From Moraxella nasovis (lineage in GTDB: Bacteria; Pseudomonadota; Gammaproteobacteria; Pseudomonadales; Moraxellaceae): a stretch of DNA of 32,000 nt. The stretch is taken from positions 1,080,001 to 1,112,000 of the forward strand of contig NZ_CP089976.1 of assembly GCF_022701215.1 (NCBI RefSeq), given 5' to 3'. The position numbers and the translations under genes are program-made. The notes under the pieces were generated by a model. That model was not told the DNA's origin and ran no database searches. It worked only from the letters and a program-made list of their open reading frames with translations. Below, piece by piece: positions 2,962-11,591 of the stretch (positions are counted from its first letter, which is position 1; every line of letters begins with the position of its first letter).

Positions 2962-4061
2962 TGAACATCTTAACCGAAATAAAAAATTGTCAAGTAGAAT
3001 GGCGGACGCTTGGGGAGGTTTGTCAAATCAACAAAGGCAAACAACTCAATAAAACTTTATTGAGCGAATCAGGAAAATACCCTGCATTTAATGGTGGAAA
3101 AACACACTCGGGTTGGACTGATAATTATAATGTTGAAGCCAATACCGTTATTATCAGCCAAGGCGGTGCTTCGGCAGGGTTTGTAAATTTTGTTGAAAGT
3201 AAATTTTGGGCAAATGCACATTGCTATTATTTGTTGCCTAATTTCTCTGTGGTTGAAAATAGATTTTTATATCATTTTTTAAAATTAAACGAACAATTTT
3301 TTATGTCATCGCAACACGGTGCAGGTATTCCAGCACTATCACTATCTAAATTATCCTGTTTTAAAATCCCCCTACCACCCCTACCAATCCAAGAAAAAAT
3401 TGTAAAAATACTTGACATTTTCACAAAGCTGGAAGCTACGCTGGAAGCTACGCTGGAAGCTGAACTTATTTTGAGAAAAAAGCAATATCATTATTATAGG
3501 GATTTATTGCTTGGGTTTGGTGATGATGTGGAGTGGCGGAGTTTGGGGGAAGTGGTTGATTATATTCAACCTAGTAAATACTTGGTTCATTCTACGGATT
3601 ATCATGATAGCTTTAAAATACCTGTTCTAACAGCGGGCAAGACATTTATTTTGGGCTATACCAATGAAACGGACGGCATTTACCCAGCTTCTGATAATCC
3701 TGTGATTATTTTTGATGATTTTACCACTGCAAATAAATGGGTGAATTTTGATTTTAAAGCCAAATCGTCGGCAATGAAAATCATTGTTCAAAAAGATAAT
3801 CAAGTGTTATTAAGGTATGTGTATCATTGGTTAAATACTTTGCCAGATGAAGAAAGTACAGACCATAAACGCCAATGGATTAGTAATTTTTCCAAAAAAC
3901 CAATCCCAATCCCACCCCTATCCACCCAAACCCAAATTGTCGCCATCTTGGATAAATTTGATACGCTGACCAATTCCATAACAGACGGTCTGCCAAAAGA
4001 GATAGAATTGCGGCGTAAGCAGTATGAATATTATCGGGAGTTGTTGCTCGGGTTTTGGTAA
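2958..4061 (+). CDS. hsdS: Type I R-M specificity subunit HsdS (copy 1)
   Basis: 367-aa ORF with two variable TRDs. Central conserved helix PLPPLPIQEKIVKILD..LRKKQYHYYRDLLLGF and distal helix PIPPLSTQTQIVAILD..LRRKQYEYYRELLLGF. Start could be ATG 2958 or 2961. Confidence 0.92.
   Translation: MMNILTEIKNCQVEWRTLGEVCQINKGKQLNKTLLSESGKYPAFNGGKTHSGWTDNYNVEANTVIISQGGASAGFVNFVESKFWANAHCYYLLPNFSVVENRFLYHFLKLNEQFFMSSQHGAGIPALSLSKLSCFKIPLPPLPIQEKIVKILDIFTKLEATLEATLEAELILRKKQYHYYRDLLLGFGDDVEWRSLGEVVDYIQPSKYLVHSTDYHDSFKIPVLTAGKTFILGYTNETDGIYPASDNPVIIFDDFTTANKWVNFDFKAKSSAMKIIVQKDNQVLLRYVYHWLNTLPDEESTDHKRQWISNFSKKPIPIPPLSTQTQIVAILDKFDTLTNSITDGLPKEIELRRKQYEYYRELLLGFW
3428..3461 (+). repeat. 12-bp tandem repeat (gctggaagctac x about 2.8) encoding LEAT-LEAT-LEA in the HsdS1 central coiled-coil spacer
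   Basis: Direct reading gives gctggaagctac at 3428-3439 and 3440-3451, then gctggaagct at 3452-3461. Confidence 0.9.
3542..3961 (+). repeat. Left copy of a 420-bp near-identical direct repeat (TRD2 of hsdS1)
   Basis: Aligned by eye at constant offset 7527 to 11069-11488. I found one mismatch, at 3911 (c) versus 11438 (t). Flanking conserved-helix DNA diverges markedly. Confidence 0.9.
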
Positions 4062-4087
4062 TGGACATATGTTATCATAGATAAGCC

Positions 4088-4152
4088 GTTTGCTTATCAA
4101 ATTTTACCATTTTTGATAAGCAAACTTGCTAGTTGCTCACGCATGAGCAACT
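4088..4152 (+). promoter_or_regulatory. Two consecutive perfect palindromes between hsdS1 and fic (terminator/attenuator or operator)
   Basis: gtttgcttatcaaa (4088-4101) and tttgataagcaaac (4112-4125) form 14-bp arms with a 10-nt spacer. agttgctca cgca tgagcaact (4131-4152) has 9-bp arms. Neither is followed by a strong T-run. Confidence 0.4.
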
Positions 4153-4195
4153 ACACACTTTGTTAATCAAAATTTGCAAAATATGAGTAGCTAGA

Positions 4196-5317
4196 ATGAA
4201 TGCTTTGGACTTAACGCACGCCATAACTTATCATTATGATAAATTCCCACCAAAAAACATAGACTTAACCAAGATAATGAATGCCCTACTTGGGGCGACA
4301 TCTGCTATTGCTCGTTATGACCAAATGCTCAAAAATATGCACAATAGCGAGATTTTGCTTGCTCCGTTGCGTAATCAAGAGGCAGTAATCTCGTCACGTA
4401 TGGAGGGTACAATTAGCACGATGGATGAGCTTTTGCAGTATGAGGCGGATTTTGCAGATGGCGAGATGTCGCATACAGTGCGTTCTGATGTTGTAGAAAC
4501 GGTGTTGTATCAACGTACACTAAAAAATGCCCAACAAGCAATGAGCGATGGCTATCCTTTGTCCAAATCTTTATTAAAAACCATGCATGAGCAATTATTA
4601 TCTTTTGGGCGTGGGGCGGATAAATTTCCAGGGCAATTTAAAAAAGAACAAAATTATTTGGCGGATACCATTAGCCGAAATATTTTATTTATTCCCATCA
4701 GCCCCGAGCGATTGGACGAAGGATTGGATTTGTTATTTGATTATATTCATCACGATAATAGCCCAATTTTATTAAAAACAGCTGTAACGCATTTGGAATT
4801 TGAGGCATTACACCCTTTTGCAGATGGTAATGGGCGTATTGGTAGAATGCTCATCACGCTACTTTTGTGGTCAAGTCAAACCATATCGGCACCACATTTT
4901 TATATTAGTGGTTATCTAGAAGAAAATAAAGACCGTTATATTGATTTAATGCGTTCGGTATCTAATCATGACGAATGGGAAGAATGGGTAGTTTTCTTTT
5001 TAAATGCTATTGAAAAACAGTCCATCAAGAATTTAGAAATTGCTGAAAATATCCGTCATTTGTATGAAGAAATGAAACCAAGATTTAGTGATGTCTTATC
5101 TAGCAAATATGCCTTAGAAATGTTAGATTTTGTGTTTACTTATCCTGTATTTCGTAATAATAATATCCCAAAACAAACAGGCATTTCTGTACCTACGGCA
5201 AATCGTTTTACCAAGTTATTAGCTGATGCTGATATTTTGACGATTACCGAAGAGGCTAGCGGTAGAAAATCTACACGTTATTCTTTTGAACCGCTGATGC
5301 GTTTGGTTCGTGTATAG
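4196..5317 (+). CDS. Fic family protein (AMPylase-type Fido domain, Fic_N N-terminus, C-terminal wHTH-like region)
   Basis: 373-aa ORF with the canonical Fic motif HPFADGNGRIGR. The N-terminal segment SSRMEG fits the inhibitory-helix motif [ST]xxxE[GN]. Confidence 0.9.
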   Translation: MNALDLTHAITYHYDKFPPKNIDLTKIMNALLGATSAIARYDQMLKNMHNSEILLAPLRNQEAVISSRMEGTISTMDELLQYEADFADGEMSHTVRSDVVETVLYQRTLKNAQQAMSDGYPLSKSLLKTMHEQLLSFGRGADKFPGQFKKEQNYLADTISRNILFIPISPERLDEGLDLLFDYIHHDNSPILLKTAVTHLEFEALHPFADGNGRIGRMLITLLLWSSQTISAPHFYISGYLEENKDRYIDLMRSVSNHDEWEEWVVFFLNAIEKQSIKNLEIAENIRHLYEEMKPRFSDVLSSKYALEMLDFVFTYPVFRNNNIPKQTGISVPTANRFTKLLADADILTITEEASGRKSTRYSFEPLMRLVRV

Positions 5318-10283: not shown

Positions 10284-10320
10284 GCGGATTGGAAATTGTG
10301 GCAAAAATAGCAAAAGAAAG

Positions 10321-10366
10321 CCCCCAAATTGTCAGCCCAATCTCGTAAGATTGGCAATATTGGGGG
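10321..10366 (+). terminator. Nested stem-loop downstream of the Abi gene
   Basis: Outer arms cccccaa (10321-10327) and ttggggg (10360-10366). Inner arms ccaatct (10337-10343) and agattgg (10348-10354). Weak T-tail. Confidence 0.35.
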
Positions 10367-10439
10367 AGTTGTTATGCACTATTGTAGCACAGTAAAATTA
10401 AAATGCAAGTTTTTACAATTTGAATAATAAAGGTGGTGA

Positions 10440-11591
10440 ATGAATATTTTGCAGATGATTGAGCGGTGTGATGTTGAATGGCGAGAGCTTGGCAAGGCTT
10501 TAATTCGCACCAAAGGCACAAAAATTACCGCAGGGCAGATGAAGGAATTGCACAAAGAAGATGCTCCCATCAAAATCTTTGCAGGCGGTAAGACTTTTGC
10601 ATTGGTTGATTATGATGATATCCCACAAAAGGACATCAATCACAAACCATCAATTATTGTCAAATCTCGTGGTATTATTGAATTTGAATATTATGATAAG
10701 CCTTTTTCTCATAAAAATGAAATGTGGGCATATCACTCCCAAGATGAAAATGTTAATTTAAAATTTATTTATTACTTTTTAAAACAAAATGAACCACGCT
10801 TTCAAGCTATCGGTAGCAAAATGCAAATGCCACAAATTGCTACGCCTGATACCGATAAATTTAAAATCCCAATCCCACCCCTACCAATTCAAGAAAAAAT
10901 CGTACAGATTTTGGATCTGTTTACCAGCTTAGAAAAAGAGTTGCGGACAGAGCTTGCATTACGACAAAAGCAATATGCTTATTACCGTGAGCTATTATTA
11001 TCATTTGATAGTAATTCTCAACAATTCCCGACACACACACACACACTGGCGACGGTGGTTTGGAAAACTTTGGGGGAAGTGGTTGATTATATTCAACCTA
11101 GTAAATACTTGGTTCATTCTACGGATTATCATGATAGCTTTAAAATACCTGTTCTAACAGCGGGCAAGACATTTATTTTGGGCTATACCAATGAAACGGA
11201 CGGCATTTACCCAGCTTCTGATAATCCTGTGATTATTTTTGATGATTTTACCACTGCAAATAAATGGGTGAATTTTGATTTTAAAGCCAAATCGTCGGCA
11301 ATGAAAATCATTGTTCAAAAAGATAATCAAGTGTTATTAAGGTATGTGTATCATTGGTTAAATACTTTGCCAGATGAAGAAAGTACAGACCATAAACGCC
11401 AATGGATTAGTAATTTTTCCAAAAAACCAATCCCAATTCCACCCCTATCCACCCAAACCCAAATTGTCGCCATCTTGGATAAATTTGACACGCTGACCAA
11501 CTCTTTAACACACGGCTTACCACGAGAGATAGAATTACGGCGTAAGCAGTATGAATATTATCAAGAAAAGTTGCTTGCCTTTAAGCAATAA
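10440..11591 (+). CDS. hsdS: Type I R-M specificity subunit HsdS (copy 2, distinct TRD1, TRD2 shared with copy 1)
   Basis: 383-aa ORF. Central helix PIPPLPIQEKIVQILD..LRQKQYAYYRELLLSF and distal helix LRRKQYEYYQEKLLAF. SD aaggtgg upstream of the ATG. Confidence 0.9.
   Translation: MNILQMIERCDVEWRELGKALIRTKGTKITAGQMKELHKEDAPIKIFAGGKTFALVDYDDIPQKDINHKPSIIVKSRGIIEFEYYDKPFSHKNEMWAYHSQDENVNLKFIYYFLKQNEPRFQAIGSKMQMPQIATPDTDKFKIPIPPLPIQEKIVQILDLFTSLEKELRTELALRQKQYAYYRELLLSFDSNSQQFPTHTHTLATVVWKTLGEVVDYIQPSKYLVHSTDYHDSFKIPVLTAGKTFILGYTNETDGIYPASDNPVIIFDDFTTANKWVNFDFKAKSSAMKIIVQKDNQVLLRYVYHWLNTLPDEESTDHKRQWISNFSKKPIPIPPLSTQTQIVAILDKFDTLTNSLTHGLPREIELRRKQYEYYQEKLLAFKQ
11031..11046 (+). repeat. (AC)8 dinucleotide repeat inside the hsdS2 coding sequence (encodes THTHT)
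   Basis: Direct reading shows acacacacacacacac at 11031-11046, in frame, 22 nt upstream of the shared TRD2 block. Confidence 0.95.
11069..11488 (+). repeat. Right copy of the 420-bp near-identical direct repeat (TRD2 of hsdS2)
   Basis: See 3542-3961. Same orientation, 7527 bp apart. Confidence 0.9.

Follow-up and report, generated by a model that had tools for sequence, protein, structure and literature searches.

Probable recent copying of a target-recognition domain between the two hsdS genes of a Type IC restriction-modification locus in Moraxella nasovis

The chromosome of Moraxella nasovis carries a restriction-modification (R-M) locus with two specificity genes, hsdS1 and hsdS2, whose second target-recognition domains (TRD2s) are nearly identical at the nucleotide (nt) level. 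How did two otherwise divergent genes come to share one domain, and what would this mean for the specificity of the system? The locus lies in a stretch of 32,000 nt, here termed the window, which spans positions 1,080,001 to 1,112,000 of contig NZ_CP089976.1 (RefSeq assembly GCF_022701215.1) and to which all M. nasovis coordinates below refer. With a probability of roughly three in four, the locus reflects a recent, non-reciprocal copy of the domain type 'D' from hsdS2 into hsdS1, which yielded S subunits of the compositions A-D and C-D in a locus of the EcoR124 family, with hsdS2 gated by a simple sequence repeat (SSR).

The gene hsdS1 (2958..4061, 367 aa) consists of TRD1 'A', a central conserved region, TRD2 'D' and a distal conserved region, and hsdS2 (10440..11591, 383 aa) of TRD1 'C', a central conserved region, a linker with the SSR, TRD2 'D' and a distal conserved region. 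Both open reading frames (ORFs) lie on the + strand, are intact, contain two Methylase_S stretches each and are annotated by NCBI as subunit S of Moraxella nasovis. The block in TRD2 of hsdS1 (3542..3961, +) and its counterpart in hsdS2 (11069..11488, +) match at 419 of 420 nt in an ungapped comparison at an offset of 7527, and a repeat search and a MAFFT alignment agree with this result. The sole mismatch, C at 3911 versus T at 11438, separates an ATC from an ATT codon, is synonymous (both Ile) and leaves the HsdS1 and HsdS2 proteins identical over the block. The longest exact run inside the block measures 369 nt, and chance is excluded as the source of an exact match of this length between two genes of 1.1 kb. 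A first-pass annotation, which read the sequence by eye, had described a 420-bp block with one mismatch at 3911/11438, in direct orientation, about 7.5 kb apart and within TRD2 of two hsdS genes, and exact alignment bears out each of these points.

Homology between the two copies reaches beyond the block, as BLASTN aligns 3542-4035 with 11069-11562 (494 nt, 12 mismatches, 97.6% identity). The distal conserved regions included in this alignment (3962..4035 in hsdS1 and 11489..11562 in hsdS2, both +) differ at 11 of 74 positions and, at about 85% identity, are still clearly homologous. The DNA after the block, initially called "clearly diverged", is indeed diverged relative to the block, but at about 85% identity that wording was an overstatement, since homology runs past 3961. 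The central conserved regions of the two genes share 78-89% nt identity over 45-65 nt. The block has diverged by 0.24%, whereas its flanks, which are constrained at the protein level, have done so by about 15%. The TRD1 regions of HsdS1 and HsdS2, with 28% protein identity, are unrelated alleles of one fold, as the first-pass annotation had it.

These figures bear on an explanation that does without any transfer between the genes, i.e., that strong purifying selection keeps the TRD2s identical, or that each gene took up the same foreign TRD independently of the other. In its favour, 'D' is widespread, with relatives in other Moraxella that are 66-86% identical and with 72% protein identity to TRD1 of EcoR124II. 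However, the synonymous sites are identical too (419/420), while the flanks, more conserved at the protein level, differ by about 15% of their nucleotides, and no external relative comes nearly as close to either copy as the copies do to each other. Identity without transfer is therefore hardly credible. Still further down the scale, bordering on the inconceivable, stands an assembly artefact, in which repeat collapse or consensus polishing would have homogenised two different TRD2s. It has no direct support, and one genome is the sole source; the record is a single 2.03-Mb contig, the copies have distinct flanks and one retained difference, and the same pattern is found in the independently assembled genomes of M. 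canis and M. oculi.

The boundaries of the block are sharp and coincide with conserved motifs. Its left end lies at TTTGGGGGAAGTGG (LGEV) and its right end inside ILDKFD; every TRD is bordered by W-x-x-LGEV upstream and by IPIPPL...ILDKFD downstream, and the tract ends fall there. Recent gene conversion or domain shuffling, proposed at first reading, is upheld by these boundaries, by the near-zero synonymous divergence, by parallel events in related species and by the literature on TRD movement (PMC6241649).

The parallel events emerged from a scan for HsdR, one genome per species, which gave 80 loci of this highly conserved HsdR family, the ORFs of which were then scanned with hidden Markov models. 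Among these 80 loci, a second hsdS downstream of hsdR occurs in Moraxella only. The two-hsdS layout is found in four further lineages, namely M. canis (L001), M. oculi (L003), Moraxella sp. GCA_041799775 (L104) and M. catarrhalis, the latter sampled at nine places (L105-L113) that all encode an identical HsdR protein. One of the nine, L110, has a different hsdS2 TRD2 next to the identical HsdR. Single-hsdS Moraxella loci exist as well, in M. bovis and at locus L103. Two further HsdR genes, P0225 and P0208, were set aside as irrelevant; they come from an integrative element that has one hsdS and an AAA_13 gene.

In M. canis, TRD1 is common to hsdS1 and hsdS2 over 402 nt (95.5% identity, 17 mismatches), the first ~317 nt being about 97.5% identical. 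In M. oculi the match is between TRD1 of hsdS1 and TRD2 of hsdS2, which agree at 380 of 380 nt. In both species the shared TRDs are in direct orientation. The cases differ in the TRD and position involved and in age, with 0 mismatches in M. oculi, 1 in M. nasovis and 17 in M. canis. TRD sharing is frequent (three of the five lineages), not obligatory.

A TRD-by-TRD identity matrix gives an indication of the direction of the copy. In M. nasovis, M. canis and L104, 'D' occupies its usual seat, TRD2 of hsdS2; the M. catarrhalis orphan hsdS likewise has it as TRD2, and 'C' is usually TRD1 of hsdS2. The HsdS2 of M. nasovis is of the C-D type, which it shares with M. canis hsdS2 and the orphan hsdS of M. 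catarrhalis. In its distal conserved region, M. nasovis hsdS1 is similar to the hsdS1 of M. canis. Given these usual seats of 'D' and 'C' in hsdS2, the events in M. nasovis and M. canis are best read as copies from hsdS2 to hsdS1, and we infer that the block at 11069..11488 was the donor and the block at 3542..3961 the recipient.

The locus around the two genes reads hsdM-rhuM-hsdS1-fic-hsdR-DUF3990/orf83-abiD-hsdS2, with all genes on the + strand. The Type IC methyltransferase subunit HsdM (416..1969, 517 aa; Pfam N6_Mtase and HsdM_N) aligns full length with the EcoR124II M protein 7bst_D at 896 bits. The Type IC restriction subunit HsdR (5346..8435, 1029 aa; Pfam HSDR_N, SWI2_SNF2, T1R_D3-like and, at 6.5e-62, EcoR124_C) aligns with EcoR124I HsdR 2w00_A at 1611 bits over residues 2-1025, and the HsdS protein scores 322 bits against an EcoR124I/II chain. 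Since all three subunits match those of EcoR124I/II full length, the system is a bona fide Type IC. The Type IC gene order hsdM-hsdS-hsdR is present, with accessory genes inserted (hsdM, rhuM, hsdS1, fic, hsdR) and with hsdS2 as an extra gene downstream. The start of rhuM overlaps the hsdM stop, and the rhuM stop overlaps the hsdS1 start; hsdS1 is therefore part of the hsdM operon. In the other four two-hsdS lineages hsdS2 starts at or overlapping the hsdR stop, which is not the case in M. nasovis.

In hsdS2, a frame-shifting (AC)8 tract (11031..11046, +), detected by Tandem Repeats Finder (TRF), lies in the linker that joins the central conserved region to TRD2. The first-pass annotation had overlooked it, as well as the spacer repeats of hsdS1 and the vestigial hsdS start described below. 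An (AC)7 tract leads to a product of 214 aa and an (AC)9 tract to one of 239 aa; both contain TRD1 and the central region only, and both end after ...YYRELLLSFDSNSQQFPTHTH. The published tract length for phase variation is at least five dinucleotide units or at least nine mononucleotides, a range into which the eight units fall, and SSRs in hsdS genes, NgoAV included, generally lie between the TRDs (PMC7383803).

A frame-shifting repeat is present at the same hsdS2 linker in five of five Moraxella lineages examined, with at least four different unit types at this one position. Besides (AC)8, M. canis has G9, M. oculi has (TC)12 in a gene that is out of frame, and both L104 (6941-6980) and M. 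catarrhalis (e.g., L105 9735-9784) have the 10-nt unit GCGACAGCGA. The nine M. catarrhalis places, all with identical HsdR, contain 1, 2, 2, 3, 4, 4, 5, 5 and 6 core copies of GCGACAGCGA, and only the alleles with 3 and 6 copies encode an intact HsdS2 (398 and 408 aa). The hsdS1 genes, the orphan hsdS and the single-hsdS Moraxella loci examined are all free of a frame-shifting linker repeat. The report on the M. catarrhalis systems does not mention a repeat tract or a frameshift in hsdS2 (PMC6241649), and a literature search for the 10-mer GCGACAGCGA returned unrelated papers only; SSR gating of the second hsdS appears not to have been reported previously for Moraxella. The hsdS2 repeat conforms to a pattern of NgoAV-like phase variation, which for M. 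nasovis itself we infer by analogy.

Repeats at TRD linkers are also seen in split single hsdS genes of other Type IC loci. The linker contains three copies of the 10-mer CGGACGAGAG in Acinetobacter kyonggiensis (L020 ~8680-8720), G10 in Parapedobacter (L035 ~8250-8262), and a long (GCAA)n tract (about 19 units in the displayed sequence) together with four copies of a 12-mer in Pseudomonas pseudonitroreducens (L072 ~8170-8250).

A second, in-frame repeat distinguishes the two central conserved regions. That of hsdS1 contains 2.8 copies of the 12-nt unit GCTGGAAGCTAC (3428..3461, +; LEAT-LEAT-LEA; found by TRF and in alignments), and hsdS2 is 4 aa shorter at this site. In EcoR124I and EcoR124II, the number of TAEL repeats sets the length of the spacer, N6 versus N7. 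The corresponding TAEL repeat is present in two or three copies among M. catarrhalis hsdS1 alleles and among M. bovis hsdS alleles (L105-L112 hsdS1 3680/3692-3715; L083 6053-6088 versus L091 5279-5302), and two or three copies are also found in M. oculi. By its sequence, this copy-number variation would be natural spacer-length variation of the EcoR124I/II type.

These elements can be combined into a mechanism. Homologous recombination of the RecA type would have copied TRD 'D' non-reciprocally from hsdS2 into hsdS1, and the copied tract would begin and end within the short conserved motifs bordering the TRDs. The resulting S subunits, A-D (HsdS1) and C-D (HsdS2), would both assemble with the single HsdM/HsdR set; with both ORFs intact, it is plausible, as the first-pass annotation had suggested, that two S subunits serve one such set and confer targets with a common half-site. 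A-D and C-D would then direct modification and restriction to two bipartite targets, which would have in common the half-site read by 'D' and differ in the other. EcoR124II TRD1 reads GAA in GAA(N6/7)RTCG, and the common half-site is probably GAA-like. The spacers of the two targets are predicted to differ by one base, because hsdS1 has one extra 4-aa repeat. Slippage of (AC)8 by one unit would truncate HsdS2 to a half-subunit with TRD1 only, and this half-subunit may dimerise to create a third, palindromic specificity, by analogy with NgoAV.

Several observations weigh against this reading. At the nine M. catarrhalis places and in L104, hsdS1 and hsdS2 have no whole TRD in common, conserved regions only; that TRD sharing is universal in two-hsdS Moraxella loci was accordingly rejected. 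The shared TRD of M. oculi resembles TRD1 of M. catarrhalis hsdS1 (75%), so that this copy appears to have run in the opposite direction, from hsdS1 to hsdS2, with a change of position, and hsdS2 as a fixed TRD donor was rejected on this account. The expression of hsdS2 in M. nasovis is uncertain, as the gene is parted from hsdR by inserted genes and preceded by a weak promoter-like match only (10369-10398). The predicted GAA-like half-site depends on the 72% identity to EcoR124II TRD1. Finally, M. nasovis is represented in the databases by a single genome, and HsdS1 and HsdS2 form singleton clusters in the protein collection.

What else might a 420-nt direct repeat be for? The first-pass annotation envisaged a one-step deletion switch, in which homologous recombination between the repeats leaves a methylase-only, restriction-negative hsdM-rhuM-hsdS locus. 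Taken as a rival reading, the repeats would exist or act mainly as a RecA substrate, and the crossover would leave an hsdS(A-D) and a modification-positive state. The geometry of this proposal is sound: the 7,527 bp to be removed comprise fic, hsdR, DUF3990/orf83, abiD and the 5' half of hsdS2, and hsdM, rhuM and a hybrid hsdS would remain. The crossover is predicted to yield a hybrid HsdS of 368 aa that is intact and has the specificity of hsdS1, and in the established biology of Type I systems loss of hsdR with M and S retained is not self-lethal. M. catarrhalis strains C031, N6 and N19 lack hsdS2 and hsdR (PMC6241649), and related single-hsdS loci exist in M. bovis and L103. These latter loci still contain hsdR, however, and are therefore not products of this deletion. 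Moreover, the deletion is irreversible and thus not a switch, and M. catarrhalis keeps both hsdS genes without a long repeat, so that the two-gene layout is independent of the repeat. The hybrid protein was not found in a collection of 15 billion proteins, in which exact look-ups of the reciprocal hybrid and of the (AC)7 and (AC)9 truncated proteins also gave no match, and a metagenome scan with a 24-mer from the block yielded 0 matches. A deletion switch is, on balance, distinctly unlikely; the deletion is a possible by-product, not the function, of the repeat, and the (AC)8 tract is more likely to be a rapid switch than the 7.5-kb deletion.

The parallel events in Moraxella raise the further question of whether the copying of 'D' was a single event or part of a recurrent process. 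In a programmed form of cassette conversion, hsdS2 would be a partly silent, SSR-gated archive, the TRDs of which are often copied into the expressed hsdS1 and back, forming a recombinase-independent, non-inverting shufflon in clonal populations comparable to pilS/pilE. Three independent and very recent events in three species, with three TRD/position combinations (0/380, 1/420 and 17/402 mismatches), argue for such a process, as do the conserved micro-homologies that border every TRD (also described in PMC6241649) and the within-strain recombination hypothesised by Blakeway et al. (PMC6241649). However, two genes with four TRDs give access to little diversity, repeated conversion would homogenise the pair, and the nine M. 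catarrhalis places with the same HsdR have stable, unshared TRDs in hsdS1 and in TRD1 of hsdS2. We hold programmed conversion to be quite improbable. A broader scheme is speculative and unlikely, if a little less so. It posits a three-layer, recombinase-free specificity generator in Moraxella Type IC loci, composed of a constitutive hsdS1, an hsdS2 that the repeat switches between a full and a half subunit, and frequent non-reciprocal copying of TRDs. The 420-nt identity would then be a snapshot of an ongoing "copy-paste" shufflon within the population and not a one-off event.

An inverting shufflon was rejected because the hsdS genes have no inverted repeats between them and the locus encodes no recombinase. 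The search for inverted repeats returned one weak 32-nt pair only (7491/13742, 78%), which is unrelated to hsdS, the homology between the hsdS genes being direct, and no ORF of 416-11591 contains an integrase or recombinase domain. The known inverting systems (SpnD39III/ivr, Streptococcus suis and Mycoplasma pulmonis; PMC7394358) likewise have several sequence-sharing hsdS genes per locus, among which recombination changes specificity. Yet they use inverted repeats, usually a site-specific recombinase and silent partial hsdS' genes, whereas M. nasovis has direct repeats, no recombinase gene and two full-length genes. The REBASE-wide survey of duplicated hsdS genes by Atack et al. (2020) looked for inverted repeats only (PMC7394358), and loci of the M. 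nasovis type would therefore not be listed there.

The copy of 'D' from hsdS2 into hsdS1, our preferred reading, is best compared with systems in which TRDs are known to move. Blakeway et al. (2018) reported two hsdS genes in the Type I system Mca25240ORF1547P at locus 1 of M. catarrhalis and an orphan hsdS at locus 6, all in one homology group ("homology group A"; PMC6241649). Identical TRDs occur there at both positions and in all three hsdS genes of different strains, direct repeats of 11-59 bp border the TRDs, domain movement by homologous recombination was proposed, and 21 TRD combinations were found (PMC6241649). M. nasovis and M. catarrhalis locus 1 agree in genus, in HsdR family and in the hsdM...hsdS1...hsdR-hsdS2 layout in one orientation. 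In M. catarrhalis, however, TRDs are shared between strains (PMC6241649), while in M. nasovis a near-identical TRD is present in both genes of one genome. The two also differ in their embedded accessory genes, which are Peptidase_M78 and DUF4411 in M. catarrhalis and SoFic, PDC-M13 and AbiD in M. nasovis, and in their chromosomal flanks. The locus adds a fresh case to the TRD movement known from the genus.

For Type I hsdS genes of Helicobacter pylori, Furuta et al. (2011) reported a domain movement (DoMo) of TRDs (PMC3077401). There, a TRD moves between the TRD1 and TRD2 positions via flanking repeats, and the M. oculi case is of this kind. In H. pylori the movement was described within one gene and between strains; in Moraxella it involves two paralogues within a locus, and the M. 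nasovis TRD kept its position.

The closest model for the gating of hsdS2 is NgoAV, a Type IC system of Neisseria gonorrhoeae, in which a poly-G tract in hsdS switches between full-length and truncated HsdS (PMC7383803, PMC9577141). Both systems are Type IC, have a frame-shifting repeat between the TRDs and encode a truncated product that keeps TRD1 and the central coiled-coil, and in M. canis the hsdS2 repeat is even a G9 tract. NgoAV has one hsdS and poly-G, in contrast to M. nasovis, where a second hsdS, the SSR-free hsdS1, is co-encoded and where the repeat is (AC)8. Since that second hsdS is free of an SSR, A-D methylation should persist whatever the state of hsdS2. EcoR124I/II, finally, has in common with the M. 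nasovis locus close HsdR, HsdM and HsdS homologues, in-frame 12-nt repeats in the central conserved region and a TRD with 72% identity ('D' and EcoR124II TRD1). The M. nasovis locus differs by its chromosomal location, embedded defence genes, two hsdS genes, the TRD2 position of the EcoR124-like TRD, and LEAT instead of TAEL repeats.

The accessory genes embedded in the locus, all on the + strand, are assigned by PADLOC to known or candidate defence families. The rhuM-family gene (1969..2961) matches Pfam Virulence_RhuM (4e-105) and the candidate family PDC-S05 (6.5e-146). The fic gene (4196..5317, 373 aa; Pfam Fic_N and Fic) is of the SoFic type (PADLOC SoFic, 1.6e-102). The "putative ART module" of the first-pass annotation (8439..9160) turned out to consist of a DUF3990 gene (8439-8912; Pfam DUF3990) and a small partner of 83 aa (8909-9160), which together match the PADLOC candidate PDC-M13 (PDC-M13A, 3.9e-60; PDC-M13B, 8e-34). 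The abiD gene (9381..10283) belongs to Abi_2 (Pfam, 1.6e-55; PADLOC AbiD, 1e-67). Just upstream of abiD sits a vestigial hsdS 5' end (9361-9403, +), evident as a direct repeat and in translation, which comprises 13 codons (9362-9403; MNILQMVEGCEVK-stop) and shares 84% identity with the hsdS2 start (10439-10475). This position suggests an insertion of abiD at the 5' end of hsdS2, and the vestige probably marks the original hsdS2 start before that insertion. Scans for promoters and terminators turned up weak consensus matches only, about as many as expected from shuffled sequence, and were not used as evidence.

At the right end of the R-M island the GC content rises from ~0.37 to ~0.52 (window positions 11000-12500), and chromosomal genes on the opposite strand follow hsdS2. 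The M. nasovis locus does not have the Aminotran_3 and Pyridoxal_deC flanks seen in M. canis, M. oculi, M. catarrhalis, L103 and L104, and judging from these flanks was acquired at, or moved to, a different chromosomal site.

Repeats are also found elsewhere in the window. An 11-nt tandem repeat, TTATTTCCCAA (x3.5, + strand; 13781-13819), lies in the short junction of the - strand genes for an ABC-transporter permease and ATPase. It immediately precedes a likely ATG start (~13778) and might influence how translation is initiated. Imperfect, GCAGC-rich tandem repeats of 21 and 33 nt (18501-18612) are located within a 208-aa ORF (18076-18702, -). The region 23382-32000 (-) is occupied by a very large gene for a trimeric autotransporter adhesin with a YadA stalk and anchor at the C-terminus, which includes at least 7 tandem copies of a 1,071-nt unit (99-100% identity) and continues beyond the end of the window.

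The reading proposed here makes predictions for the methylome of M. nasovis, which should contain two bipartite N6-methyladenine (m6A) motifs with a common GAA-like half-site and spacers one base apart, and a palindromic motif in (AC)n slippage variants. The comparison also documents natural spacer-repeat variation of the EcoR124I/II kind and the copying of TRDs between co-oriented paralogues, an arrangement that is missed by surveys for inverted repeats only. M. catarrhalis is a human pathogen, and the copy number of its hsdS2 repeat varies among strains with identical HsdR. If the three-layer scheme were true, the M. catarrhalis locus 1 system would be an undescribed phasevarion. If the repeat is confirmed, a phase-variable methyltransferase of Type I would join the known Type III phasevarions of M. 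catarrhalis, and would be relevant to studies of epigenetic regulation and of the stability of vaccine antigens.

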